IMG/VR virus record: IMGVR_UViG_646311923_000010
Source of the DNA: a virus
Lineage: Duplodnaviria > Heunggongvirae > Uroviricota > Caudoviricetes
Length of the DNA: 38,756 bases
Reading direction: 5' to 3' (one strand)
Shown piece after piece: positions 10,426 to 38,756 of the stretch. Under the pieces are notes generated by a model, which saw only the letters and a program-made list of their open reading frames with translations, searched no databases and was not told the DNA's origin. Both the position numbers and the translations under genes were made by a program. The stretch's first letter is position 1. Each line of letters opens with the position of its first letter.

Positions 10426-11385
10426 ATGAAAATTTGTATCGACGACGGCTCCACCAACATCAAGCTGGCATGGACTGAGAACGGCGAACGCCGCAACGCC
10501 ATCAGCCCGAACAGCTTCAAGTCGGAATGGTCTGCGCCGTTCGGTGGTACGCAGCCCGCGAACTACATGCTTGATGGCGTGCGCTATGGTTTTGATCCGG
10601 TCAGCGATCGCTTTGTCCAGACGACCGACACGCAATACCAGTACAGCGATGTGAATGTCATTGCCATTCATCACGCGCTGGTCAAATCAGGCATCACACC
10701 ACAGGAAGTGGATGTGGTTGTCACCCTGCCACTGAGCGAGTATTTCGATACAAACGCACAGCCGGACATGGCCAACATCAACCGCAAAAAAGCGAACGTC
10801 ATGCGCCCGGTGGAGTACCAGAACGGCGAAGCATTCACTATCCGTAACGTACGGGTTATGCCTGAATCCATTCCGGCAGGCTTTAAGGCACTGGCTGACA
10901 TGAGTCCGTTTGAATCCCTACTGATTGTGGATTTGGGCGGAACCACGCTGGATGTGGCAAAGGTTCAGGGGCAACTGGCAGGTATCAGCCAGGTGTTTTG
11001 CGATCCACACGTAGGCGTTTCTCTGATGGCCGATGCCGTACTGTCGGTGATGGCCACTAACGGTATGCGCACCAGTCACCACATCGCCAATACCATTATC
11101 GAACATCGCCATGATGAAGCCTGGCTGCGCCAGCACATCCACAATGACGCGCATTACGCCAGCCTGATGGCGGTTATTCGTGAAAAGGAAGAAACACTGA
11201 AACAACGCGTGATCCGCGCGCTGGCGGTTTTTTCGGGTTACGGGCGGGTGATGGTTGTCGGTGGCGGGGCGGAGATTGTGGCACCCGCTATCCGCGAAGC
11301 CTGCGGAGTTAATGCGACTTTCATCGCGGACGGGGTGCCACAGTTTGCTCTGGTTAATGGGCTGTACGCAATGGACAAGGAGTAA
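10426..11385 (+). CDS. parM: ParM/StbA-like actin-fold partition ATPase
   Basis: 319-aa ORF; N-terminus MKICIDDGSTNIKLAW and motifs YSDVNVIAIHHAL, VMPESIPAG, LIVDLGGTTLD, VMVVGGGAE align with recalled plasmid R1 ParM. Confidence 0.8.
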   Translation: MKICIDDGSTNIKLAWTENGERRNAISPNSFKSEWSAPFGGTQPANYMLDGVRYGFDPVSDRFVQTTDTQYQYSDVNVIAIHHALVKSGITPQEVDVVVTLPLSEYFDTNAQPDMANINRKKANVMRPVEYQNGEAFTIRNVRVMPESIPAGFKALADMSPFESLLIVDLGGTTLDVAKVQGQLAGISQVFCDPHVGVSLMADAVLSVMATNGMRTSHHIANTIIEHRHDEAWLRQHIHNDAHYASLMAVIREKEETLKQRVIRALAVFSGYGRVMVVGGGAEIVAPAIREACGVNATFIADGVPQFALVNGLYAMDKE

Positions 11386-11389
11386 ACCA

Positions 11390-11701
11390 ATGACGACACC
11401 AACCAGACGGATAAGTTTCTATCTGAAGCCCGCCGCCGTCAAGAACGAAGGCGAAGCATGCGCATGGCTGGACAGCCTTACACCAGAAGCCCGCAAAAGC
11501 GGCCAACGCGTGGCTTTTCTGGCCGGGCTGGCACTTCTGAAAATGAATCCGGCAGAGGCTTACCGACTGGCTGCATGGGCTGACGATGAGACGTTATCAG
11601 TGACACAAACCAAGACAGAACGCCCCGAGTCACAGCCAGTACCAACCGCACAGATAACCAGTCAGATGGCCGGAAATATCAGGGCGTTATTTCCTGAATA
11701 A
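11390..11701 (+). CDS. parR: ParR-like centromere-binding adaptor
   Basis: ORF 11255..11701; ATG at 11390 four nt after parM-like stop; RISFYLKP...LDSLTPEARKSGQRVAFLAGLAL resembles recalled R1 ParR N-terminal region. Confidence 0.6.
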   Translation: MTTPTRRISFYLKPAAVKNEGEACAWLDSLTPEARKSGQRVAFLAGLALLKMNPAEAYRLAAWADDETLSVTQTKTERPESQPVPTAQITSQMAGNIRALFPE

Positions 11702-11764
11702 CACAACATCAGGGCGAGTTCGCCCTGCTCTCCACCTCAGAACATAAACAAGGAGAACGACATA

Positions 11765-12289
11765 ATGAGCGAAATCAACTATCAGGCATTACGTGAGGCA
11801 GCACAAAACTATCAATCGACGCTGGCGTGGTATGAGGCCATCGCGGATAACCCAAATGCTGAGCAGGATTGTAACGAAGCAGTGGCGGCGTTTAAGCGTC
11901 AAATCCGTCATCAGGAAATGGACATTATCGCCGAGCTGCTGGAAGAACTGGAAACCAAAGACAACAGGATCGCTGAACTGGAAAAAATCGCCACTGACCA
12001 TGCACTGAAATTCCAGAAAGCACAGGACGCATTAAAGTATGCCGCTTTGCTGCATAGCAGGACGGCGCAACAAACAAATAATTTTGCAGTATCGCTTCCG
12101 GACATAAGCGAATATTTCATTAATGACGTATTTCAGCCCTTGCGATACGAGCGGGATGTTGAAAGAGCCATCATAAAGGCTGGCGGAAAAGCATTGTGGC
12201 AGGAGAAACACGAGGACAGAACGCATCAGTCCTGCGATGTAAATCGTGGATGGTTTAGCCCACTGACGACAGATAAAAATAACACCTGA
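11765..12289 (+). CDS. Ead/Ea22-like coiled-coil protein (function unknown)
   Basis: 174-aa ORF; N-terminus MSEINYQALREAAQ typical of Ea22-like phage proteins as recalled; central coiled-coil segment. Confidence 0.5.
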   Translation: MSEINYQALREAAQNYQSTLAWYEAIADNPNAEQDCNEAVAAFKRQIRHQEMDIIAELLEELETKDNRIAELEKIATDHALKFQKAQDALKYAALLHSRTAQQTNNFAVSLPDISEYFINDVFQPLRYERDVERAIIKAGGKALWQEKHEDRTHQSCDVNRGWFSPLTTDKNNT

Positions 12290-26094: not shown

Positions 26095-26628
26095 ATGATG
26101 CACTTAAAAAACATTACTGCTGGCAACCCTAAAACAAAAGAGCAATACCAGCTAACGAAACAATTTAACATCAAATGGCTTTATTCAGAGGATGGAAAAA
26201 ACTGGTATGAGGAACAAAAGAATTTCCAGCCAGACACTTTGAAAATGGTCTATGACCATAACGGCGTTATTATTTGTATTGAAAAGGATGTTTCAGCAAT
26301 TAATCCGGAAGGCGCAAGCGTCGTTGAATTACCTGATATTACAGCAAATCGCCGTGCTGACATTTCGGGTAAATGGATGTTCAAAGATGGCGTAGTGGTA
26401 AAGCGAACTTATACCGAGGAAGAGCAGAGGCAGCAGGCGGAAAATGAAAAGCAAAGCCTGCTACAGCTCGTCAGGGATAAAACCCAGCTATGGGACTCAC
26501 AGCTACGGCTGGGCATCATTTCCGACGAGAATAAACAAAAATTAACAGAGTGGATGCTCTTTGCGCAGAAAGTCGAATCTACAGACACTTCCAGCCTGCC
26601 AGTAACGTTTCCCGAACAACCAGAATGA
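26095..26628 (+). CDS. Tail fibre assembly chaperone (gpG/Tfa)
   Basis: 177-aa ORF immediately after H; N-terminus MMHLKNITAGNPKT and DITANRRAD motif shared with the minus-strand paralogue. Confidence 0.8.
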   Translation: MMHLKNITAGNPKTKEQYQLTKQFNIKWLYSEDGKNWYEEQKNFQPDTLKMVYDHNGVIICIEKDVSAINPEGASVVELPDITANRRADISGKWMFKDGVVVKRTYTEEEQRQQAENEKQSLLQLVRDKTQLWDSQLRLGIISDENKQKLTEWMLFAQKVESTDTSSLPVTFPEQPE

Positions 26629-26631
26629 GAG

Positions 26632-26651
26632 AAGGCCCGATATCGGGCCTT
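26632..26651. terminator. Bidirectional hairpin between convergent tail-fibre assembly genes
   Basis: Perfect 20-bp palindrome AAGGCCCGATATCGGGCCTT flanked by A/T runs. Confidence 0.6.
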
Positions 26652-26656
26652 AATTT

Positions 26657-27184
26657 TTACTCAGGCTTTTGTGGCCATTCGGGCTTTGCCGTATCCACAC
26701 GGCTGACCATAACACTGTAGCGTTCCCATGCTTCCAGTCGGCTACGCTCCTCATCCGTCGCCATATTCAGCCTGACAGCGCGCTCCAGTGGCTGAATAAC
26801 GCTTTCCGCTTCGGAAAGTAACGCGGCCTTTTGTGATTCGGCCTGTTGTTGCTGCTCGTCTGCCGTATAAATCCGTTTAACTACAGCTCCGTCCTTAAAC
26901 ATCCACTTACCGGAATCATCGGCCCGACGATTGGCTGTTATATCGGGGACCTCAACGACGTTAAAACCTTCAGGGTTAAGCGTGGAGGCATCTTTAGTTA
27001 TGGCAACAATAATATTATGTTCATCGTAAACAATCTTTATTGTGTCTTCCTGAAAATTCTTTACCTCTTCATACCAGTTTTTTCCGTCTTCGGACCACAA
27101 CCAGATAACGTCAAAATTCTTTGTTAATTCGTACTGTTTCAGTGTTTTAGCGTTACCCGCTTTAATGTTCTTTAAGTGCATCAT
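26657..27184 (-). CDS. Alternative tail fibre assembly chaperone (Tfa')
   Basis: 175-aa ORF on minus strand, paralogous to 26095..26628. Confidence 0.8.
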
Positions 27185-27185
27185 A

Positions 27186-28424
27186 TTAAACGCTCGCTAC
27201 ATTATACCAGGTGCCATTTATATACTTTTGAACTGGTCTGTAATAAACGCCAGCTATATTATCGGCAGAATTTGACCCTGTATCCTGAACATTTATACCA
27301 GACAATACATGACCTGAAGGGCACTGGAAGCTCCATGTTTGCCAGTTGTTCACACCATAATATTGCTGTGAACCAAGCCGAACATCTTTCACATATCGGG
27401 CATCAATGTTACCCCAGTTGCTTGGTTGTATCTGACCGTTTACAGCAAATGTCACCGAGTTATCTGTATTTCGCTGACTATAGAAATGCCAGCCTGAATC
27501 ATCACCAAGCTCTGCAACAGTTGGTCTTGACGAATTTCCCCACAAGTTAAATGATGCATTACGGGCAGCGGTATTTGCACTTGAAAGTGTGAATAACTTA
27601 CTTTCCCCAGCCTGAATACCCTTTAATGATATTGCTGAACCATTTCTAAAGCGGAATACATGCACACCATTAGCATAAGCATCCAGCACCCCATCACCAT
27701 TTTGTTTAAACCCGGTATCGTTATCTCCTAAAACTATTGAATTGCTACCCAGGGCATTAGCCGTTCCAATCCCCAGATTTCCGCTAAAAATGGCATTAAT
27801 ACCGAATATTGAGTGAGAACAATAAAACCCTCGCCCATTGTTAAAATCAAGAATAGCTTGTGCGTTCGTGCTTTCTGTCGCGGGATTAGTTGCTCCCCAC
27901 TTATATGTTGTTTGACCGACGGTATAATCCTGAGTTGGAACAATAACCGTTAGCCCTTCTTCAGCAGAAACCCGCACAGGAAAAGCCCTGCCTTCAACGT
28001 AAAAAACGCTGCATACATCATCTTCTTTAAGGCTTGTTACAATGGAATGGATTGCGCGCTCATTAGTCTGATACGTCGAAAAATAACCTGCCGCATATGA
28101 ACCACGATCAGTCCAGCCACCAGGCATTACCATTCCATTGAATTCGCAGTTATTCATTTCGTAATTACCACCGGCAGATGTGGTCGTTATAATCACTCTG
28201 GAAGCCAGCTCGCCAGTGCTGCCTGTGGAACGCCGGAAAATAACTGGATACCACTTTCCACCAACTGCATTAGACGGCGCATTAAATGCGTACTGCTGCA
28301 TTCCTTTTTTCTTATCCACCTCGCCTTTGCTGTAAACATTAATGTTACTCAGGAAGCGATCCTTATCAGGAATATCTGCGCCGTTCTGGTTTTTCTGTAA
28401 TGCGCCAGAAGCCTGATTTACCGT
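27186..28424 (-). CDS. Alternative tail-fibre variable C-terminal segment (Hv'), promoterless and startless in this orientation
   Basis: Open frame continues upstream of the track ORF (27186..28319) to the crossover site; first ~25 codons after the site are identical to those in H ([24 protein letters not shown]). Confidence 0.7.
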
Positions 28425-28450
28425 TTCCTGTAAACCGAGGTTTTAGATAA
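28425..28450. other. DNA invertase crossover site (gix/cix-like), right
   Basis: TTCCTGTAAACCGAGGTTTTAGATAA, reverse complement of the left site with 3 mismatches. Confidence 0.8.
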
Positions 28451-28504
28451 TGGCCGTTTCCGGCCTGCATGGCATGATTTGCGCTTTTGGACGGGAGATT
28501 CAGT

Positions 28505-29104
28505 GTGCTGATTGGTTATGTAAGGGTATCAACAAATGACCAGAATACAGACCTGCAACGAAACGCTCTTGTTTGTGCAGGATGTGAACAAATATTTGAA
28601 GATAAATTAAGCGGGACAAAGACAGACCGACCGGGATTAAAACGCGCTTTAAAGCGGCTTCAAAAAGGTGACACGCTGGTTGTCTGGAAACTGGATCGCC
28701 TCGGGCGAAGCATGAAACATCTGATTTCTCTCGTCGGGGAACTACGGGAGCGAGGGATTAATTTTCGCAGTCTGACCGACAGCATAGATACATCTTCTCC
28801 AATGGGGCGTTTTTTCTTCCACGTTATGGGTGCCCTGGCTGAAATGGAACGTGAATTAATTGTTGAACGTACACTGGCCGGACTGGCGGCAGCGCGCGCA
28901 CGGGGGCGCACAGGCGGACGTCGCCCGAAGCTGACAAAAGAACAGCATGAGCAAATAGCTAGGCTGATCAAAAACGGTCATGACAGGAAACAACTGGCGA
29001 TCATTTACGACATCGGCATATCGACAATTTATCGTTATCACCCTGTGGGCGATATACAGGCTGAAGAAACAACCAGGCAGACTCAGGAAAATGAAAACCG
29101 CTAA
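28505..29104 (+). CDS. Serine recombinase DNA invertase (Gin/Pin/Cin/Hin family)
   Basis: ORF 28487..29104; GTG at 28505 gives MLIGYVRVSTNDQNTDLQRNAL, the classic invertase N-terminus with catalytic Ser; C-terminal HTH. Confidence 0.9.
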   Translation: MLIGYVRVSTNDQNTDLQRNALVCAGCEQIFEDKLSGTKTDRPGLKRALKRLQKGDTLVVWKLDRLGRSMKHLISLVGELRERGINFRSLTDSIDTSSPMGRFFFHVMGALAEMERELIVERTLAGLAAARARGRTGGRRPKLTKEQHEQIARLIKNGHDRKQLAIIYDIGISTIYRYHPVGDIQAEETTRQTQENENR

Positions 29105-29123
29105 TCTGACCATTAGCGGTTTT
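29094..29123. terminator. Bidirectional terminator hairpin between convergent invertase and U genes
   Basis: AAAACCGCTAAT-ctgacc-ATTAGCGGTTTT perfect 12-bp inverted repeat. Confidence 0.6.
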
Positions 29124-29130
29124 GCGTTAA

Positions 29131-29625
29131 TCAAAACAGCCCTTTAACGGAGCTGGCCGCGCTGTTAAGGGATGATGTGACCTTATCTTTGAAGCCGGAC
29201 AGCATATCACTGAACGATGAGGATTGCAGGCGCTCCCGCAAATCCTCATCACAGCGTTCAAGGGTCAGTGAAAATTCTATCTTTTTCGCCTTACCGTAGC
29301 GATCAAACTCGGAACGGGTCGTATTCGTTCCGGTCAGGACATACATGCCGTAAATCTGCCCGACGCCATCAATCAAAGGCCAGGGTCGTCCTGTATACGC
29401 CTGCGTGGTCAGCAGCGACAGCGACACTTCGCCACCTGTAATTTCAGGATAAAGCACACCAGAAAGAACGATGCGATCATCACCTGCACCGATATACTGC
29501 CAGCTTGCTGAACGGTTAACGCGTTCATTTTTCACATGCCGCCAGCTTTTGTTTTGCTGTAACTGCTGATGCGGCAGCGTGCGCAGCTCAAAAACAAACA
29601 TGCCGTAGATCATCATCATGGCCAT
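29131..29625 (-). CDS. U: Tail protein, P2 gpU family
   Basis: 164-aa ORF; FVFELRT...SGVLYPEITGG...KIEFSLTL aligns with recalled gpU; alternative start 29619. Confidence 0.85.
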   Translation of the reverse strand: MAMMMIYGMFVFELRTLPHQQLQQNKSWRHVKNERVNRSASWQYIGAGDDRIVLSGVLYPEITGGEVSLSLLTTQAYTGRPWPLIDGVGQIYGMYVLTGTNTTRSEFDRYGKAKKIEFSLTLERCDEDLRERLQSSSFSDMLSGFKDKVTSSLNSAASSVKGLF

Positions 29626-29631
29626 GACTCC

Positions 29632-32475
29632 TCAATCTTTATCGTAAAAACTGCCACGCCCAGCACGGGCGCGCCGTTCCATTTCTGCCCTGACCATTTC
29701 ACCGACCAGTTTCGCCAGTTCGCGGGGATTCTGCGTAACAACGTTATGCAGATGAACATGAATTTCACCGCCAAATCCTGAGGCAACAGGTTCCCGGTTA
29801 CGCGAAGGTGTTGGGGCTGATGCCACTGGCGATCGTATGGCCTCCGCCACCGGGCGGGAGCTGGCCGCAACAACAGGGACCAGCGCCGGAGGCAGCGGGG
29901 CCGGAACCACAGGCGTGATATTAATTGCGGGGGCAGGCTTACTGACCTGCGCAATCTTCCGCTCCTGCCACTCCCCACGAACGGCAAGTGCGCGGGGCAG
30001 GTTCTTAAAGACAATATCGCCGGGGCCAATGCGTTTTTTCGTCTCATCAACCAGCTTACCTGTGTTATCAGCAATCTTGCTGAGTCTGCGTAGCGTACCG
30101 GTATTGCTGTCTGTGAGCGGTTTGTTGTCTTTGGGTTTATCACCTCCGGTGCCATTGCCATTTTCCACAGGCTTCGGCGGATTGATTTTCGCCAGGTCAC
30201 CCTGAAGCAAGGCAACCTTGTCCTGAAGAATGGCCGCACGCTGTGCGTCTTCGATTTTCTTTCTCGCCCTTTCCGCTTCATCCGGAAGCACACCGAGTTT
30301 TTCAAGTATCCACGCCAGCGTATCCAGCAACATTTTTGCTGGCGTCAGAACAAGCTGTAACGCGCCACCAAGAACGTTGCCGAATACCTCGCCAGCACTG
30401 GTGCATTTATCCAGCGTTTCCTTGCTGGACTCCATCGGTGACAACAGCGATTTAAACCAGTTAAACACCTGGCTGATCCCGCTTCCGATTGCGTCAAAAA
30501 CAGGACCAAACCGTTCAAAGGTTTCGCGCAACGGGGTCAGCCTTTCCATAATTCCGCTGAACACCCCGGCAAAAAATGCCCTGATGGGATCCCAGTATTT
30601 CCAGATAAGAATGGCAGCTCCGGCAAGCGCAGCCACGATAAGACCAACCGGACTGAACAGCGCCCCGATAGCACCTCCCAGCAAAGAAACGGAACCCGTC
30701 ACCATTCCCCATAGTGCTGGCAGGAGCCTGACAGCATTCATTGATCCGGTCAGGAGGGAAAAACCAAGACGCAGTTTTGCCAGCGGACCAGCAAGCACAC
30801 CAAGAGCAAGCGACAACGAGCCTACGGTTGCAGTCACTGCCAGCAGCGCACCGCCTGCAATCAGTAGCTGGCGCGTCAGTACAGGATGGGCCTGCGCCAG
30901 TACCGTCACCTTTGAGACCACCCGTGTTAGCCACTGCGTGACAGAACGCAGCGGACCGTCAACCAGATCACTGATGCGAATACGAAGACCTTCCCATGCG
31001 CTGTCGAGATTTTTCAGGTCGCCATCAAGGTTGTCGGCCATAACCTTTGCCGTGCGTTCAGCCTCACCGCGTGCGCCCTCAAGTTCTTTTCTCAGTTTGG
31101 GTAAGGAACCGTCACCCGCCGCATCAACGAGTGCCATAAACGATGTGAAAGCCTCTTCCCCGGCGATGTCCTTAAAGAAGGATACCCGGTCAACTTCCCC
31201 GTATTTGCGGGTGGCTTTATAAAGGTCAGCCAGCAGATCTTCCATCGGGCGCATTTTGCCCCCGGCATCCGAAACGGACACGCCCAGCTCTTTCAGAGCT
31301 TCTGCCGCCGCCTTTGGCGGTGATGCCAGACGAGCCAGGCTGGCACGCATTGCCGTCCCGGCATCACTCCCTCTGATGCCCATATTCGCCAGCACGCCCG
31401 CCATCGCTGCGGCCTGCTCCAGCGATATTCCCAGCTTACCCGCCACCGGACCTGCATATTTCATGGTTTCGCCCAGTGCGCGAAGGTCAGTGTTGGTACG
31501 GGTAAACGCTGCGGTGAGTGTGTCACCGACCCGGTCCATCTGGTCAGCAGAAAGGCCGAACTGCGTCAGGATATTTGAGCCAATATCTGCCGTCTCGCCG
31601 AGATCCATACCGCCAGCCGTTGCCATGCTCAGCACGCCGGGAAGCGCAGCCTGAATGGCCTGCGGAGTGAAGCCAGCCATTGCAAGAAATGCCTGTCCAC
31701 TGGCGGCATCGCCTGCGGTGAACTGCGTTTCAGAGCCAAGTTTTAACGCCTGCTCACGCAGCGCCTTAAACTGCGGGCTGTTCTGGTCGATTCGCGTCAG
31801 TGCCTGAACGCGGGACATCTCTTTGCCGAACCCGATCGCAGGCTGCAAAAAACGCCCGGCAGCATAGCCGCCCGCCGCTGCCGCACCAATTGCCAGTGCA
31901 CCACCTGTTTTCAGTTTTCCCGCTGTTTCCTGCGCGCGCGAATACCGCTCACGCGCCCGCGTTACACGCGCAAGCGCCTGCCGTTCGCGTTCAAGCTGGT
32001 TGTTGTACTGTTCGGTGCGTCTGATGGCCTGCTGGATGGTGTTATCGCTGCCTGTCAGGGAAATGCCGTGGCGTTTCAGCTCTCCGCCAAGCTCCCGCAT
32101 TTTCTGAATTTCCCGCGTGCGCGATTCATTCAGGCGTTCAAGCCGGGTGCTTAACTGCTGCATCAGCTTTTGTTGTTTTTCGCTGAGCACTGTACCCGTG
32201 CGTTGTAACTGATTAAGGGCGTTAAGCTGGCGTCGTGCTTTCACGATACCCGCATCCGCTTTACTGACAGCGTCGCGGGCGCGCTCAAATGAACGCGCCT
32301 GACGCTCGAGATTTTTGATCGCCCCCTGCGTTCGCTGGATGGAGTCACCAAACTGCCCCATCAGGCGGCGGGCGTTTTCGGCAGGCCGGGTCAGCCTGTC
32401 AACGGCGCTGAAAGCGACCCGGATATCAAGAGTCTTCATTGTCTGCATTCCCGCTGCGAAGTGCCGCCCGCTCAC
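29632..32475 (-). CDS. T: Tail tape measure protein, P2 gpT family
   Basis: 947-aa ORF; long coiled-coil N-terminal half, Gly/Ala-rich hydrophobic middle; track start is GTG at 32475, alternative ATGs at 32448 and 32439. Confidence 0.85.
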   Translation of the reverse strand: MSGRHFAAGMQTMKTLDIRVAFSAVDRLTRPAENARRLMGQFGDSIQRTQGAIKNLERQARSFERARDAVSKADAGIVKARRQLNALNQLQRTGTVLSEKQQKLMQQLSTRLERLNESRTREIQKMRELGGELKRHGISLTGSDNTIQQAIRRTEQYNNQLERERQALARVTRARERYSRAQETAGKLKTGGALAIGAAAAGGYAAGRFLQPAIGFGKEMSRVQALTRIDQNSPQFKALREQALKLGSETQFTAGDAASGQAFLAMAGFTPQAIQAALPGVLSMATAGGMDLGETADIGSNILTQFGLSADQMDRVGDTLTAAFTRTNTDLRALGETMKYAGPVAGKLGISLEQAAAMAGVLANMGIRGSDAGTAMRASLARLASPPKAAAEALKELGVSVSDAGGKMRPMEDLLADLYKATRKYGEVDRVSFFKDIAGEEAFTSFMALVDAAGDGSLPKLRKELEGARGEAERTAKVMADNLDGDLKNLDSAWEGLRIRISDLVDGPLRSVTQWLTRVVSKVTVLAQAHPVLTRQLLIAGGALLAVTATVGSLSLALGVLAGPLAKLRLGFSLLTGSMNAVRLLPALWGMVTGSVSLLGGAIGALFSPVGLIVAALAGAAILIWKYWDPIRAFFAGVFSGIMERLTPLRETFERFGPVFDAIGSGISQVFNWFKSLLSPMESSKETLDKCTSAGEVFGNVLGGALQLVLTPAKMLLDTLAWILEKLGVLPDEAERARKKIEDAQRAAILQDKVALLQGDLAKINPPKPVENGNGTGGDKPKDNKPLTDSNTGTLRRLSKIADNTGKLVDETKKRIGPGDIVFKNLPRALAVRGEWQERKIAQVSKPAPAINITPVVPAPLPPALVPVVAASSRPVAEAIRSPVASAPTPSRNREPVASGFGGEIHVHLHNVVTQNPRELAKLVGEMVRAEMERRARAGRGSFYDKD

Positions 32476-32589
32476 GCCAGCTAACCACTTCGCCGGGCGT
32501 CATCATGAAGATTTCGGCGGGCGACCAGTTAAAAATAACGGCAATATCTGCCACAAAGTCTTCTATGTGCTCAAAGCACACAACCGTGA

Positions 32590-32955
32590 TCAGGCTTCCG
32601 TCGCCTGTTCGTTCTTCCCGCCAGAGTCCGCACCGCTCAAAAAATTTACGGCAACCACACATAACTGAATAAAGTCACGGGATGCCATTTTTTTGATCGT
32701 CACTTCATCCAGTCGCGGTGATGTCACGCGTGACAGCAGCGTAAACATGGATTCCGCTTTCAGATTCAGCACATCAGACAGCGACAAATCTCGCAGAGAT
32801 CCAGCCTGCTCAATAGCCCCGGTGATCTCCACATACGTGATTTTTTCGCCGCCTCGCTCAATTGGTTGGGTAAGTTTTACGCCACGCTCACTGGTTTCTT
32901 TCACAGTGTCAGCAACTACCGTGTTTTCGGTATCGATGTTTTTCGTCTCTTTCAT
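32590..32955 (-). CDS. E: Tail assembly chaperone gpE, with programmed -1 frameshift product E+E' extending to 32426
   Basis: 121-aa ORF; slippery TTTTTTG (plus-strand A-run 32639-32644) near its 3' end; overlapping -1 frame stays open to 32426 and overlaps T start. Confidence 0.7.
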   Translation of the reverse strand: MKETKNIDTENTVVADTVKETSERGVKLTQPIERGGEKITYVEITGAIEQAGSLRDLSLSDVLNLKAESMFTLLSRVTSPRLDEVTIKKMASRDFIQLCVVAVNFLSGADSGGKNEQATEA

Positions 32956-33009
32956 CAGGAAACTCCTTTCAGTCAGAGGCGACGCACTGCGCCGCCTGCA
33001 TATTACTTA

Positions 33010-33522
33010 TCAGCCAAGCCCAAGCGCGGAACGGATGCGATCGGGCACAATGTCCTTGCCGTCCTTCCGGTAAATGAAGTTCAGCAGGTCAATCTCCCAC
33101 AACGGACGATCGTTAACACTCAGCTTGTAGTAGGTGTTTTTAATGGCGTAAGTGTGTGATGTGGCTTCGCCCTGTTTGGCTTCCCCCATATCAATTTCCG
33201 TCACGCGTCCGCGCATTTCGACTTCATACAGGTCGCTTTCTGCATCGGTGTAGTATTCACCCGCAAAACGCAGTAGCGTGCCGTCAATCGTGCCGCCATA
33301 CTTAAGGAACAGCTCACGAACTGCGCCCCCCATGACAAAGCTCGCATCAAGCGCGGAGTCGTCCAGACCGAGATCAATACTTACCGCACCCATCATGCCG
33401 CCCCCCCGGTAGCTGTCGGTTTTGCGCGTCAGCTTAGGCAGAGTGACGGACGTCACCTTACCCACTTCGTTTTCACCATCCACAAACAGCGTAAAAAAGC
33501 GAAGATGTTTTGGCACAGCCAT
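33010..33522 (-). CDS. FII: Tail tube protein, P2 gpFII family
   Basis: 170-aa ORF directly downstream of FI on the same strand; size matches gpFII. Confidence 0.88.
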   Translation of the reverse strand: MAVPKHLRFFTLFVDGENEVGKVTSVTLPKLTRKTDSYRGGGMMGAVSIDLGLDDSALDASFVMGGAVRELFLKYGGTIDGTLLRFAGEYYTDAESDLYEVEMRGRVTEIDMGEAKQGEATSHTYAIKNTYYKLSVNDRPLWEIDLLNFIYRKDGKDIVPDRIRSALGLG

Positions 33523-34706
33523 CAGGCACCTCCCAAAACCGCAAATGCGGGTTCAAAGTATTCATCAGTAAACGTCTGGTAAAGCTCCATGTCTTCCAGT
33601 GGCGGAACGGGCGTATATTTGTAGCGAATACGCACACGCCCCTGACGTAAATCCGTGGTGCTGTTATCCACCACGTCATACCAGCACTCCGCGCCAATCA
33701 GTTTCCCGGCAGTAACCAGTGAATCCAGTTTTGCCCTGATGGCACTGATAACATCCTTCACGTTCGCAGGCGTCAGTGGACTGTCGATGGTTTCAAACTG
33801 CGCATCCGCAATTGAATCAGCCAGCACCTGTGCGGTTCGGGTATACACCTCAAAGATGTAGGCGTTCGTTTCCGGTGTGCGGTTGCCCCAGAAGCGGAAC
33901 CCGTTGCGACGAATAATGGTCGTGATTTCTTTGTTGTTGAGGCTGTTGGCATCACTGTCTTCGGCCTGCAACGACCAGAACACATGCCTGGACATCCCCA
34001 GCACATTTTTAACCGGAACGTTGGACAGCGATTTGTGCCAGCCCTGCTCATGGTCAATGTACGCACGAAGGCCGCACGCATAGGCAGGCGCGGGGAACGT
34101 TTCGTTTTTGCCACTTTTCGGGTTGTAGGCGATGAAGTCCGGCCATAAGAGCATCACCTCACGTTCGTTGAATTTCTGGCGGTAGGTAATCGCCTCAGCC
34201 ATCGTGTTACAGCCGTGACATGAGGCATACACAAACGCGCGCAGTTTACCCGCAATCACGCACAGGGATTTTGTTACCGCCTCCGTGTCCAGCTCCGGCG
34301 CGGCCAGAATACGCGGACGGTATCCGATGGTTTCATCCTGCTCTGCAACAAGCAGCGCATACATCCCCGTATAGCTGCCGTCAGATTCAGAACCACCGAT
34401 AACCAGTTGATCCTGCGTTTTTCCGTCTTCTTCTTTGTGTTCAGCCACGCGAACGACGATCACCTTTGTGCTCACCTGGTCTGCGATAGCCTTAAGCGCA
34501 CGATAAAGCGTCCCCGTTGTTCCGCATTTTCCCAGCACGTCATTGACGCGGGTCAGCAGTGTGGGCTTGTTCAGCGGGAACAGCTCCGCATCCGCATCAT
34601 CCGCCGTTGCCACGATACCGATAACACTGGAATCAACATCATTAATCGCTGTTACCAGGTCGGTACTTTCCGTAACACGGGCACCATGAAAACGAGTTTC
34701 ACTCAT
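33522..34706 (-). CDS. FI: Contractile tail sheath protein, P2 gpFI family
   Basis: 394-aa ORF; size and downstream gene order match gpFI. Confidence 0.9.
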   Translation of the reverse strand: MSETRFHGARVTESTDLVTAINDVDSSVIGIVATADDADAELFPLNKPTLLTRVNDVLGKCGTTGTLYRALKAIADQVSTKVIVVRVAEHKEEDGKTQDQLVIGGSESDGSYTGMYALLVAEQDETIGYRPRILAAPELDTEAVTKSLCVIAGKLRAFVYASCHGCNTMAEAITYRQKFNEREVMLLWPDFIAYNPKSGKNETFPAPAYACGLRAYIDHEQGWHKSLSNVPVKNVLGMSRHVFWSLQAEDSDANSLNNKEITTIIRRNGFRFWGNRTPETNAYIFEVYTRTAQVLADSIADAQFETIDSPLTPANVKDVISAIRAKLDSLVTAGKLIGAECWYDVVDNSTTDLRQGRVRIRYKYTPVPPLEDMELYQTFTDEYFEPAFAVLGGA

Positions 34707-34862
34707 AGCTTCAGCCCCTTGTATCCGTTAAATGATTCGGCAACAATCATCACCCACCACGCGCGTAATCTCACCCCTGCGCCGTTCTCCCGCCACGGCG
34801 ACAACAAAAAGCAGTAACCCCCTCCGCACGCACATGCGACCATGCCACACAGGGAGGGAAAG
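34707..34862. promoter_or_regulatory. Intergenic region between divergent FI and D; presumed late promoter(s) and one inversion junction
   Basis: 156 bp between divergently oriented FI and D starts; in canonical P2 D follows U on the same strand. Confidence 0.35.
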
Positions 34863-35972
34863 ATGATCGACACCACCATGCAATTGCTCAGTCAGAGCAC
34901 AGACCCCGTGAAAATGCCGGATTTTGATATTCTCGCGGAGGGGGAAACGCTGTCCGGCGTGGCAGAGCGCCTGATGAGTCTGTCACTGACCGACAACCGG
35001 GGATTTGAAGCGGACCAGCTCACCATCACGCTGGATGATGCGGATGGTCAGTTGCAGCTACCGCCACGGGGCGCGCGCCTGACGGTTCTCATTGGCTGGA
35101 AAGGAGAACCGCTGACAGAAAAAGGCACTTACATTGTTGATGAAATCGCTCACGAAGGACCGCCGGACAGGCTGACTGTTTCAGCCAGAAGCGCAGATTT
35201 TCGGGATGAATTTAACGTTAAACGTGAGGTGTCCTGGCATGATGTGACCGTTGAACGTGTGGTATCCGCCATCGCTCATCGGTATGGTCTGAAACCGCAA
35301 ATCAGCGAAATGCTGATGGATATCGAAATCGACCACGCCGACCAGACCGAAGAAAGCGACATGTCCTTCCTTACGCGCATGGCGGAAATGCTGGGCGCAA
35401 TCACCACGGTAAAAAGCGGCAATCTGTTATTCATCATGCCAGGCGGTGGCGTGAACGCACAGGGCCAGCCGTTGCCCTCGTTCGCCATTACACGCAGCAG
35501 CGGCGATCGCCATCAGTTCCGCATTGCTGACCGCGAGGCGTATACGGGGGTACGCGCCTACTGGCTTGATCTTAATTACGGGAAAAAGAAAAAAGTCAGC
35601 GTGAAACGCCGTAAACCGCCAAAACCCAAAAAGGAGAAAAGCAGCAGCCGTGAAGGTGATTATATGGAAGGCGCGGAAGGCAATGTGTTTGTGTTACGCA
35701 AGACTTATCAGAACGAGCAGGCAGCAAGACGCGCAGCGGCGGCAAAGTGGCAGCAGCTACAACGCGGAGCCGCATCATTCTCCATCACGCTGGCACGTGG
35801 TCGTGCAGAACTCTACCCCGAAATGCATGGCACGGTAACAGGATTCAAAAGCGACATTGATAAACAGAACTGGATTATAGCCAAGGCGGAACACACCATC
35901 GATGGAAGCGCGTTTACCTCGCAGCTTGAGCTTGAAGCAAAAATCCCGGAATGGATAGCAGAAACAGAGTGA
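34863..35972 (+). CDS. D: Tail protein, P2 gpD family
   Basis: ORF 34842..35972; ATG at 34863 preceded by AGGGAGGG; size and position before ogr match gpD. Confidence 0.85.
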   Translation: MIDTTMQLLSQSTDPVKMPDFDILAEGETLSGVAERLMSLSLTDNRGFEADQLTITLDDADGQLQLPPRGARLTVLIGWKGEPLTEKGTYIVDEIAHEGPPDRLTVSARSADFRDEFNVKREVSWHDVTVERVVSAIAHRYGLKPQISEMLMDIEIDHADQTEESDMSFLTRMAEMLGAITTVKSGNLLFIMPGGGVNAQGQPLPSFAITRSSGDRHQFRIADREAYTGVRAYWLDLNYGKKKKVSVKRRKPPKPKKEKSSSREGDYMEGAEGNVFVLRKTYQNEQAARRAAAAKWQQLQRGAASFSITLARGRAELYPEMHGTVTGFKSDIDKQNWIIAKAEHTIDGSAFTSQLELEAKIPEWIAETE

Positions 35973-36323
35973 GCAACTTGGATGCATTAGCTCAGACCAA
36001 AGCTGGCACGCTTACGACGCAGAACCAAACTTAATCTGACAGTCCGCTTTGTACCAGAAGCAGACATTAATAACATTATTTGCAATAACCAATTGATATT
36101 GTTTTTATTGCGTGTTATTAAAGCATATCCGCTTGTGATCATTACCAACTACTCGTCTATTTTTATTTGTGAGCAAAATCAGATTTTAGGTAGAAACATT
36201 TTGTGAAAAAAAATAGCGAAATTTTTTGTAGGAAGTAAGTCAAGCAGATATAGCAGCAGATCGGAAGTTATTGGTCATGCGTTATTTACTCTAAGCAAAA
36301 AAACTTAGTACAGGAAAAAATAA

Positions 36324-37907
36324 ATGGCAAGTAAAGCTAACCTTGTTAATTTGGATGCGATGATTTCAAGAGAGGATTTCTCTGCTCAATCCGATAATGA
36401 TTTATCTTTCGAATCTATACAAAATATAGCTATGAGAGATATCGAAATGTTGTCTGGCCTACTCAGAAAACCAGATTTTCAGAGAGAAACAAATCACTGG
36501 ACTCCAGAGCAAGTAGTTTCATTACTAAAGAGTTTTGTCACAGGTGATTTAATACCATCCGTGATTTTATGGAAGAGTTCTTTTCTGTTTGTTATAGACG
36601 GTGGTCATAGACTTAGTGTTTTAAGAGCATGGAAAGAAAATGACTATGGTGATGGCACTATATCGCAAAAATTCTTTGGAAATAGTATTTCCGGAGAGCA
36701 AAGAAAGATCGCACAAAAAACAAGAGAATTGGTTGACTCCACAGTTGGTAAATGGTCTGAGATAGAAAGAAAAATGCAGGATTCTAATAATGACCATGAT
36801 GAGAGTAGAAGGCTTACAAATATTTACGTAAGGGCTTTGCAAGTCCAGTGGGTTAAAGGTGATTCCGATAAGGCAGAAACGTCTTTTTTCAATATAAATA
36901 AAAAAGGTACTCCTTTAGATGAGGTTGAGGAAACTTTACTTAGGCATAGGAAGAAACCTATATCTATCGCTGCGAGAGCAATAATACGTGCAGGAAAAGG
37001 ACATAGATACTGGTCCTCTTTCCCTGAGGATAAGACTAAAAAGATAGAAGAGCTTTCCTCAAATATAAACTCCTCTCTTTTCGATCCAGACGTTAAATCT
37101 CAAATTAAAACACTTGATCTACCTCTGGGTGGCTCACGCGGTGTGAGGTTAGCTCTTGATATCTTAATAGATCTTATGTCTATTTCCGTGTCCCAAAACG
37201 AAAATTATCAAAAAGAATTGCTTAATCAAATCGAAGATTCAGATGGAAGCGAAACTGTTGTTGTTCTGGAAAAAACCGCAAAATTACTAAATTGGATTAC
37301 TGGAAATGACAAGGGCAGCTTAGGATTACATCCGGCCGTGTATTTTTATAGTGCATCAGGCAGACATGTGAATCCTATGTTTTTAGGGACGACTCTGTTT
37401 ATAGCGAAAAAATTAAAATTTAATGATAAGAACTTCTTCAAAAAATTCACAAGTATTAGGTTTAATTTAGAGAAAACTCTAATAAACAATAAGTCTATGC
37501 TAGCATCGTTAGTGAACAGAGCAGGACATAAGAAAAGAACTGAGTATTACTCTAATTTATTTGAGTCAATGATTGATTTCCTTCTTGAGGTAAAAAAGAA
37601 AGACAAAAGCATGAGTGATTTCAGCCTTACAGAAAGTGAAATACTCCAGCTTGCTCACTTTGAAGGTAATATCCTATCTGGGACAAGTATCAGCAATGCA
37701 ACTAAAATTAGTGAGGAAGCGAAGAATGCTGTATTCATTGATACTGCATTAGCTTCAGCAATTACATGTCCTATCTGCCAGGGATATTTAGATCCTTCAA
37801 AATCTGTCTCATATGATCACATCAAAAGAGTTGCAGATGGTGGTAAAGGTTTGGCAAAAAATACTCAGTTAACTCACCCGTATTGCAATATGTCTGTCAA
37901 AAATTAG
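36324..37907 (+). CDS. DUF262 (ParB-like, DGxHR motif) + C-terminal HNH nuclease protein; GmrSD/BrxU-like candidate defence nuclease
   Basis: 527-aa AT-rich ORF; N-terminal PDFQRETNHWTPEQV...FVIDGGHRLSVL matches the DUF262 signature; C-terminal CPICQGY...YDHIKRVADGGKG...NTQLTHPYCN is HNH/His-Me-finger-like; flanked by AT-rich non-coding DNA. Confidence 0.7.
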   Translation: MASKANLVNLDAMISREDFSAQSDNDLSFESIQNIAMRDIEMLSGLLRKPDFQRETNHWTPEQVVSLLKSFVTGDLIPSVILWKSSFLFVIDGGHRLSVLRAWKENDYGDGTISQKFFGNSISGEQRKIAQKTRELVDSTVGKWSEIERKMQDSNNDHDESRRLTNIYVRALQVQWVKGDSDKAETSFFNINKKGTPLDEVEETLLRHRKKPISIAARAIIRAGKGHRYWSSFPEDKTKKIEELSSNINSSLFDPDVKSQIKTLDLPLGGSRGVRLALDILIDLMSISVSQNENYQKELLNQIEDSDGSETVVVLEKTAKLLNWITGNDKGSLGLHPAVYFYSASGRHVNPMFLGTTLFIAKKLKFNDKNFFKKFTSIRFNLEKTLINNKSMLASLVNRAGHKKRTEYYSNLFESMIDFLLEVKKKDKSMSDFSLTESEILQLAHFEGNILSGTSISNATKISEEAKNAVFIDTALASAITCPICQGYLDPSKSVSYDHIKRVADGGKGLAKNTQLTHPYCNMSVKN

Positions 37908-37937
37908 CAATGAGTTAACAATTTTATATCAGATAAC

Positions 37938-37963
37938 AGCCTTCTATAATTGAAGGCTTTTCG
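37938..37963 (+). terminator. Rho-independent terminator downstream of the DUF262-HNH gene
   Basis: AGCCTTC-tataatt-GAAGGCT hairpin followed by TTTCG. Confidence 0.6.
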
Positions 37964-38164
37964 TATGATGCTTTCTTCAATAGAAATGTTGAGTATGATG
38001 GAAGATCTCTAATAGTGAATGGTTCGGTTAGGCCAGATACCTACCACTCTACACAAAACTTTGTGTCCGATCCTCGCTCACAGCAGTCGCTCCCAAGGGT
38101 TTCAGTTGGAGTCTGAGCTAGTACAACTTAGAATAGCGGCAGCACCACGTTAAGGGAGGTCGCT

Positions 38165-38425
38165 ATGTTCCGTTGTCCGCTTTGTGGCGCATCTGCCCGT
38201 ATCCGCACCAGTCGTCCGGAAAATGATTCAAACACCGTGCGGCAAAAGTATTACCAGTGTAACAATCTGGAATGCGGCGTATGCTTCTCAACACTGGAAG
38301 CTTTCCATAAATTCACATCAAAACACGCCTCCGGCGTTCACTCTTCAGAAGGTATCCCGTGGCATGAGCTGCCAGCTTCACACAGGGGAAACAATCAGAT
38401 GAGCTTGCCTTTACCTCAGAATTAA
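38165..38425 (+). CDS. ogr: Late transcription activator, Ogr/Delta zinc-finger family
   Basis: 86-aa ORF; MFRCPLCG...CNNLEC four-cysteine arrangement aligns with recalled P2 Ogr; AGGGAGG RBS. Confidence 0.85.
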   Translation: MFRCPLCGASARIRTSRPENDSNTVRQKYYQCNNLECGVCFSTLEAFHKFTSKHASGVHSSEGIPWHELPASHRGNNQMSLPLPQN

Positions 38426-38615
38426 CAGGCAGAATTGCCGGAGTAACAAAAAAGAGATAGATTACGCGCGGGTGCCTTTCGGCTGATGGTCGGAGGGAAT
38501 ACCCGAAGGCCAGATGTGGAAAGGCCCCGGAAAACATTTCTGTTTAACCGAGGCCCTAACCGCATTACCTTGACAAGTGAAAGGTTAGCGCCTCTCCGGA
38601 AAAGGAGCAAGTGCT

Positions 38616-38756
38616 ATGTCGCAAAAATCGCTTACGGCCATCACGTTCTGCGTGACGGCAATCCTCATCATCTGGATGTTGCACGGTTCGCTGTGCGAAA
38701 TACGGATGAGCTTCTGGGGAGCGGAGTTTGCGGCGTTCTTACAGTGTAAGCAGTAA
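38616..38756 (+). CDS. hok: Hok/Gef-family type I toxin peptide
   Basis: 46-aa ORF MSQKSLTAITFCVTAILIIWMLHGSLCEIRMSFWGAEFAAFLQCKQ; N-terminal TM helix and conserved SLCEIR motif; an overlapping upstream frame (38486..38749) is mok-like. Confidence 0.7.
   Translation: MSQKSLTAITFCVTAILIIWMLHGSLCEIRMSFWGAEFAAFLQCKQ

Follow-up and report, generated by a model that had tools for sequence, protein, structure and literature searches.

A DUF262-HNH gene between D and ogr of a P2-like prophage: a candidate stand-alone GmrSD-like nuclease in a hairpin-bounded unit

DUF262 proteins of enterobacteria were recently clustered by Silas et al. 2025 (PMC12373910), whose groups CLS_001-020 comprise 12 single-gene groups (ParB_n with HNH or DUF1524) and three two-gene groups, HNH or DUF1524 being accepted alike for GmrSD groups. 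Representatives of all 15 groups were made by synthesis in that study, which reports restriction of T-even phages by five new ones. In SspE and DndI, DUF262 nickases that sense phosphorothioate (PT) modification, nucleoside triphosphate (NTP) hydrolysis is an allosteric switch according to the literature. As to where P2-like phages carry cargo, Rousset et al. 2022 (PMC9122126) analysed only gpA-gpQ (P2) and psu-int (P4) and do not mention D-ogr, and a 'third P2 hotspot' near the D-ogr junction is reported in the iLund4u preprint (10.1101/2024.10.15.618418). Here we analyse a 38,756-nucleotide stretch of phage DNA (IMG/VR record IMGVR_UViG_646311923_000010), which as a whole we call the window, and in it the gene between gpD and ogr for a 527-amino-acid (aa) protein with DUF262 and HNH regions, WP_000146939. 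As a candidate defence gene it is less new than the original prediction, made from the letters of the window, had implied, for the exact protein is catalogued as a putative type IV enzyme: it is listed in CLS_014, in a listing that includes locus ECO103_RS09955 with gpD and ogr as neighbours (PMC12373910), and its RefSeq name is 'GmrSD restriction endonuclease domain-containing protein'.

The prophage, P2-like and of the P88/Xuanwuvirus type, has its home in the btuC-ihfA interval of Escherichia coli O103:H2 12009, and several O145 strains carry an identical copy. We consider it fairly likely that the gene encodes a stand-alone GmrSD-like restriction nuclease, probably modification-dependent, which would be expressed from the prophage and protect the lysogen against other phages or plasmids. 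We infer anti-phage activity, and likewise NTPase activity, nuclease activity, target and phenotype, from sequence comparisons. The gene, its control regions and the two phage genes that anchor the site are as follows (ORF, open reading frame).

34842..35972, plus strand: gpD tail gene, left anchor of the cargo site (ORF; Pfam Phage_GPD 6.2e-16; RefSeq annotation)
36066..36323, plus strand: AT-rich leader, the presumed promoter region, judged by its composition and by its moving together with the gene
36324..37907, plus strand: 527-aa protein WP_000146939, with DUF262, a helical middle and a putative zinc-ribbon HNH, ATG start
37938..37958, plus strand: hairpin resembling a terminator, with a T-rich stretch after it; the Pantoea copy conserves it
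38165..38425, plus strand: ogr late-gene activator, right anchor (ORF; Pfam Ogr_Delta 5.1e-14)

The gene is the sole ORF between gpD and ogr. A low-GC block of ~2.2 kb with one 527-aa gene had been described at this place, and alignment to the empty-site phage P88 agrees, putting the inserted block at 35980-38124 (2,145 bp, GC 0.36); GC is 0.31-0.39 over 36000-38000 and 0.50-0.60 in the flanking phage DNA. The D-ogr gap is 42 bp in P88 and 81 bp in P2, where it had been put at no more than about 100 bp and where it contains the annotated ogr promoter. The locus is thus as first described in all its parts. Of the promoter region and terminator claimed for the gene, the AT-rich leader is there, as is a terminator-like hairpin starting 30 nt 3' of the stop codon; upstream of the ORF there is no match to a sigma-70 consensus promoter. 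Because a 284-nt AT-rich leader and the terminator are also found with the gene on a Pantoea megaplasmid (90% identity at the DNA level), we regard the gene as a self-contained unit.

All of the DUF262 and HNH motifs that had been quoted for the protein are present, namely PDFQR (aa 50-54), IDGGHR (91-96), CPIC (482-485), DH (498-499), GG (506-507), N513 and HPYC (518-521). The protein also has the QR motif (F52-Q53-R54) and, at aa 188-192, the F..N motif (FFNIN). On profile search, PF03235 (DUF262/GmrSD_N) matches aa 47-202 with an E-value of 2.1e-13 and 51.3 bits against a cut-off of 33.2, and it matches all 25 homologues in our family alignment, whose members are ~55% identical. The HNH region had been expected to match as well. 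For the single protein, the PF01844 (HNH) match at aa 482-523 is under the cut-off (17.4 bits against 21.4; E 0.005), but 25 of the 25 aligned members match it at E<=0.01 (best 1.8e-6), so the assignment is sound at the family level. Residues C482, C485, D498, H499, N513, H518, C521 and N522 are invariant among the 25 sequences, as are KPDFQRE, DGGHR and the FFNINKKGTPLD block, a pattern suggestive of a CCHC zinc ribbon that encloses a catalytic H-N-N set. There are more than 2,800 homologues, nearly all of 515-560 aa and 53-57% identity, in Gamma- and Betaproteobacteria and Verrucomicrobia, so the ORF is not there by chance. In a 50%-identity library they form 291 clusters at E<=1e-30, nearly all of 510-560 aa and of one architecture. 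Judged by its motifs, the family is a distinct clade of the DUF262-nuclease group, with DGGHR for DGQQR and a putative zinc-ribbon HNH for DUF1524, and it would add to the GmrSD-like enzymes a well-delimited and widespread clade (~290 clusters at 50% identity).

Several results weigh against a GmrSD-like restriction enzyme. The central NTP-binding motif is the invariant DGGHR, in which the D, G and R of DGQQR are retained and the QQ is not. DUF1524, which the original prediction had named as a domain to search for, has no Pfam match at E<=1 in the 527-aa protein. The PADLOC models for GmrSD, BrxU and SspE do not match it, the only hit being a weak one to NsnA at aa 49-109, and the PADLOC and NCBIfam searches gave no informative match; nor did a search of all PDB chains, with the protein and with the 25-member family profile, return any relevant sequence match. 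The AlphaFold model is moderate (pLDDT 71.9, and 52-60 in the HNH region, where it places strands at 495-497 and 515-517 and a helix at 519-526 with low confidence), and the global TM-score to BrxU is 0.28. Of the 12 additional groups tested by Silas et al. (PMC12373910), no more than five acted on T-even phages. Also, Dam methylation and Dcm-type 5-methylcytosine can be argued not to be the target, because E. coli has both alongside the gene and the Burkholderia phage KL3 encodes a Dcm-like methylase next to its homologue. The closest solved folds by predicted-structure comparison are those of BrxU and SspE, in line with the GmrSD/BrxU/SspE-type architecture first proposed. With DGGHR for DGQQR and no DUF1524, the protein is a variant and not a canonical GmrSD.

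The genomic settings of the homologues bear on function as well. In all eleven contexts that we read the gene is solitary, which agrees with the single-gene system proposed for it, and in none of these neighbourhoods are methylase, immunity, dnd/ssp or BREX genes of its own beside it. In a Yersinia satellite the homologue lies between a delta/ogr-like gene and int, and in two Xenorhabdus lambdoid prophages it is downstream of cI. It is the only cargo of ~4-kb Rep+MobC plasmids, where it is 89% identical and overlaps rep. Other homologues occupy chromosomal islets amid housekeeping genes (GCA_964253535.1 and Erwinia). The copy on the Pantoea agglomerans megaplasmid is 96% identical and probably disrupted, because it is annotated as two coding sequences (83 aa and 440 aa). 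In the P2-like phage KL3 (NC_015266.1), the homologue gp44, left as hypothetical in the 2010 paper, adjoins the portal gene in the classical tin/old position, beside an EcoRII-C/Dcm/Vsr module to which the adjacent methylase belongs. The 41%-identical homologue in the Pseudomonas filamentous phage Pf8 (NC_073756.1) bears the label 'putative repressor C protein', which looks mistaken.

A solitary gene at known defence locations supports restriction, and since no methylase, immunity or dnd/ssp partner was found anywhere, type IV restriction of a modification that the host does not have is the simplest form of it. The N-terminal ParB/sulfiredoxin-like DUF262 domain (FQR, DGGHR, FFNIN) would bind and hydrolyse NTP and act as sensor or switch, the long helical middle region would mediate dimerisation and couple both ends, and the C-terminal zinc-ribbon HNH, with C482, C485, H518 and C521 as zinc ligands and D498, H499, N513 and N522 as catalytic residues, would cut or nick the target DNA when licensed by the NTP-driven switch. 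The gene itself would have come to the prophage in a cassette with hairpins at its ends, which inserted at the ogr promoter.

The D-ogr junction had been put forward as a cargo site other than the two classical P2 hotspots, and an occupancy survey agrees. The D/ogr pair of the window is present in 1,241 of 5,426 complete E. coli genomes. We took 60 evenly spaced records, of which 52 showed both flanks; the junction is empty in 31 of these (~849 bp span) and occupied in 21 (~40%). At least 10 different cargos of 1.0-2.1 kb occur there with the same boundaries. The DUF262-HNH cargo itself is present in 13 E. coli genomes, at least 99.2% identical and always at D-ogr (13/13), with no copies elsewhere in E. 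coli. Other cargos encode a SEC-C/YecA-family protein, DUF2971 (the PADLOC candidate PDC-S31, 5e-27), DUF3800, two PIN proteins (PIN_4 and PIN_12), a weak HEPN protein, three hypotheticals, a two-gene set and IS600. The junction is thus a regular hotspot of P88-type P2-like prophages with a defence flavour, the possible defence role being suggested by hints at the domain level. In such prophages, the survey shows it to be a real third cargo site.

The ends of the insertion consist of a direct repeat, a pair of outer modules and, inside these, two hairpins that we call IRL (left) and IRR (right).

35975..35982, no strand: left copy of the 8-bp direct repeat, AACTTGGA, from the P88 comparison
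35983..36041, no strand: outer-left module, starting TGCATTAGCTCAGAC, an imperfect inverted repeat with 38095-38125
36042..36065, plus strand: left hairpin IRL, GTCCGCTT-TGTACCAG-AAGCAGAC, with 2 mismatches against the consensus GTCCGCTTTGTGCCAGAAGCGGAC
38065..38088, plus strand: right hairpin IRR, GTCCGAT-CCTCGCTCAC-AGCAGTC, its stem degenerate in the window copy
38089..38124, no strand: outer-right module, ending TCAGTTGGAGTCTGAGCTAGTAC, with a -35-like TTGGAG at 38106-38111
38125..38134, plus strand: right copy of the direct repeat, AACTTAGA, overlapping the -10 element TAGAAT of the ogr promoter (38129-38134)

In the empty site of P88, AACTTAGA is present as a single copy. All ten D-ogr cargos have the same ends: on the left the D stop codon, AACTT(A/G)GA and the ~60-nt TGCATTAGCTCAGAC module, and on the right TCAGTTGGAGTCTGAGCTAGTAC followed by AACTTAGA. 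The outer modules, TGCATTAGCTCAGAC and GTCTGAGCTAGTACA, are imperfect inverted repeats (31 nt, 71%), and the left one is semi-conserved in the ten D-ogr cargos and in a lambdoid hotspot. That hotspot, located after a DUF977 gene, has a homologous outer-left module and a (G)ATTAAAG/TTTAAAG repeat. Together, the outer inverted repeats and the 8-bp direct repeat look like the footprint of a transposon; deletion between direct repeats would be the alternative. An empty lambdoid DUF977 site, on which target duplication could be checked, was not found, and the smallest version there retains both hairpins.

The right end bears on the phage itself. The -10 element TAGAAT is homologous to the annotated -10 of the P2 ogr promoter, and TTGGAG stands at 17-nt spacing from it. 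With the right repeat running into this -10 and a -35-like TTGGAG provided by the insert, the insertion would rebuild the ogr promoter and not destroy it, and the phage would therefore keep its late-gene switch. We also considered the left flank as a decayed duplicate of the promoter and 5' end of ogr and rejected this, as only an 11-mer is common (z<=3) and it is absent from other cassettes. RNAalifold found no conserved RNA structure in the flanks, and Rfam gave only sok.

DNA common to the window and Pantoea (90% identity) is limited to 36040-38080. The consensus 24-nt sites are GTCCGCT-TTGTGCCAGA-AGCGGAC for IRL and GTCCGCT-yyTCGCTCAw-AGCGGAC for IRR. The exact consensus IRL, GTCCGCTTTGTGCCAGRAGYGGAC, occurs in 42 viral contigs and in 83 stretches among 100,044 species-representative genomes. 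Most of these stretches belong to Pantoea, Erwinia, Enterobacter, Leclercia and Klebsiella, and a few come from Alphaproteobacteria. With only 1-6 exact copies per genome, the hairpin is not a repetitive extragenic palindromic (REP) element of high copy number in Erwiniaceae, an idea that we rejected. When an IRR is called at no more than 2 mismatches in 15 nt, 46 of 121 distinct IRL sites have one downstream on the same strand within 4 kb, where ~0.3 such pairs would be expected by chance; on the opposite strand there is one downstream and none upstream. In 29 cases the IRR lies ~15 nt upstream of the IRL, which is the junction of a tandem array. Inverted-repeat statistics within single cassettes are weak (z 0-4.6), and the signal is clear only from the consensus and the orientation counts.

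The units so bounded are 391-3,721 bp long, with a median of 1,490 bp. Their cargo on phage contigs includes DarTG (2e-79, 8e-38), a type III-A retron (5e-170, 4e-112), AbiEii (7e-70) and HEC-08 (5e-145), together with a NUDIX+HAD pair and with proteins of caspase-like, AbiC-like, PIN and DUF3800 type. Chromosomal units, as read from their sequences, carry LysR regulators, MFS pumps, dehydrogenases and hydrolases. The NUDIX+HAD unit is found 99.4-99.5% identical at two unrelated sites, and the homology begins at IRL nucleotide 0 and stops one base short of the IRR end. In prophages with equal flanks and unlike cargos, homology breaks exactly at the hairpins, and the window and Pantoea copies behave likewise. 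Such units lie at D-ogr and Z/fun of P2-like prophages, after DUF977 in lambdoid ones, next to umuC, on an IncN plasmid, on Pantoea megaplasmids and in chromosomes. A composite element of the form IRR-spacer-IRL separates two cargo genes at the Z/fun hotspot of a P2-like prophage of ST131-type strains, and on an IncN KPC plasmid it follows an unrelated HNH gene of 489 aa. On a Pantoea agglomerans megaplasmid the hairpin element occurs four times within 9.6 kb.

Based on these observations we tentatively propose, at somewhat less than even confidence, that the 0.4-3.7 kb hairpin-bounded units may form a cassette system, exchanged at the hairpins, assembled in tandem arrays, present in several hotspots and loaded with defence cargo in phages and with assorted accessory genes in chromosomes. 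The hairpins would be the sites of a site-specific recombinase or of a hairpin-dependent transposase acting in trans. We found no description of the hairpin site or of similar cassettes in the searchable literature or in Rfam, which does not by itself prove novelty. If this is a true recombination system, it would explain mechanistically how defence genes move between the hotspots of unrelated phages and plasmids, and the 24-nt site would offer an easy sequence tag by which to spot new defence genes in short contigs. We believe that the vehicle is more consequential than the nuclease gene, from which the gain is modest, for although the gene is easy to clone it is already on a published candidate list.

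The company that the gene keeps supports a defence role, with PIN, HEPN-like, DUF2971 and DUF3800 proteins among the D-ogr cargos and DarTG, a retron, AbiEii and HEC-08 in other cassettes. The most serious rival also takes it for a defence gene, but one that is independent of modification: a phage protein, a replication intermediate or DNA ends would trigger indiscriminate cutting and abortive infection, as in other single-gene systems that combine nuclease and NTPase. The DGGHR variant and the lack of a match to the GmrSD, BrxU and SspE models leave room for another trigger, and many of the neighbouring cassette cargos (AbiEii, DarTG, the retron, AbiC-like proteins) are abortive-infection systems. 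All characterised DUF262-nuclease fusions in the literature cited here sense DNA modification, however, and the sequence gives no hint of a protein sensor domain, so we judge this reading unlikely, if clearly the best of the alternatives. Much less probable is an HNH enzyme that serves itself or the phage, either by homing-type spread of its own cassette or by degrading host DNA or aiding packaging in the lytic cycle. HNH genes are indeed common selfish elements in phages, and the cassette is mobile with precise ends, but the same ends flank dozens of unrelated cargos, so mobility needs no such nuclease; the phage does not need the gene either, as only 13 of ~1,240 related E. coli prophages have it, and a conserved NTPase domain in a 520-aa architecture is unlike homing HNH enzymes.

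Two last explanations we regard as very improbable. A ParB-like protein for DNA binding, partition or regulation, in which the nuclease motif is a vestige, would fit the ParB/Srx fold of DUF262, the overlap with rep on small plasmids and the repressor label of the Pf homologue, but not the invariance of the HNH catalytic and zinc residues in 25 sequences of ~55% identity, and neither parS-like repeats nor a partner ATPase was seen. An SspE- or DndI-like effector that needs PT modification by the host is no better placed, since the absence of ssp and dnd genes next to the gene in the eleven contexts excludes dependence on neighbouring PT genes. Within the reach of computation, the interpretation first given to this locus, that of a candidate single-gene anti-phage system, is supported.

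Several further features of the window were noted. The start of gpD is 35172 in the current RefSeq annotation and 34863 in an older one, with the full ORF starting at 34842, and RefSeq adds a pseudo 'hypothetical' at 35119-35211; the RefSeq start and the pseudogene are probably annotation artefacts. A hok/sok type I toxin-antitoxin module, also present in P88, lies at 38470-38756 between ogr and the prophage end (Rfam sok 2.4e-9, below the gathering score; Hok/Gef ORF 38616-38756). The tin/old hotspot, from replication gene A to portal gene Q (10426-12289), holds a ParM/ParR-like partition pair and an ead/Ea22-like gene and no recognisable defence system. The tail genes FI-FII-E-E'-T-U at 26095-34706 are on the minus strand, opposite D and ogr, whereas in P2 F-E-T-U-D is one operon. 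A recombinase gene (28505-29104) adjoins duplicated, oppositely oriented tail-fibre assembly genes, which suggests an invertible host-range segment. Between the btuC-side prophage end and the integrase, a DUF1640 protein gene and a hypothetical (1174-2212) may mark another cargo position.

When set beside the described systems, the protein is closest in layout to the GmrSD family (Eco CT596 GmrSD; Machnicka et al. 2015; CLS_014), with which it shares the N-terminal DUF262 NTPase-like domain, the QR and FxxxN motifs, the long helical linker, the C-terminal His-Me/HNH nuclease, the single polypeptide and the lack of a cognate methylase. It differs in having DGGHR for DGQQR and a CxxC...HxxC PF01844-type HNH for DUF1524, and in not matching the PADLOC GmrSD models. 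BrxU, the BREX-associated GmrSD-like enzyme (PDB 7P9K/7P9M), is the best fold match, yet at 11-12% identity and a TM-score of 0.28; unlike it, our gene has no BREX locus in any neighbourhood read, and its NTPase motif and nuclease subtype are others. SspE and DndI likewise combine DUF262 with an HNH-type nuclease, but no sspABCD or dndBCDE genes stand beside the gene. The D-ogr junction resembles the P2 and P4 hotspots (PMC9122126; 10.1101/2024.10.15.618418) in being a small locus, set between two conserved phage genes, in which cargo turnover is high and defence-type domains occur. Among the homologues, the delta/ogr-int locus of the Yersinia satellite is reminiscent of the P4 psu-int hotspot, and that of KL3 lies in the portal-proximal one.

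Integron attC cassettes, Acinetobacter pdif modules and mobile insertion cassettes are cassette systems bounded by short recombination sites. The hairpin-bounded units differ from the attC and pdif systems in that no integrase or transposase has been identified for them and in their extra outer inverted repeat and 8-bp direct repeat; GTCCGCT-N10-AGCGGAC is unlike attC core sites and dif, and the orientation of the cargo is not fixed. Like the attC, pdif and mobile insertion cassettes, they consist of 0.4-3.7 kb of cargo between paired short palindromic sites in fixed relative orientation, they form tandem arrays with composite junctions, and the same cargo is found at unrelated places with its breakpoints exactly at the sites.

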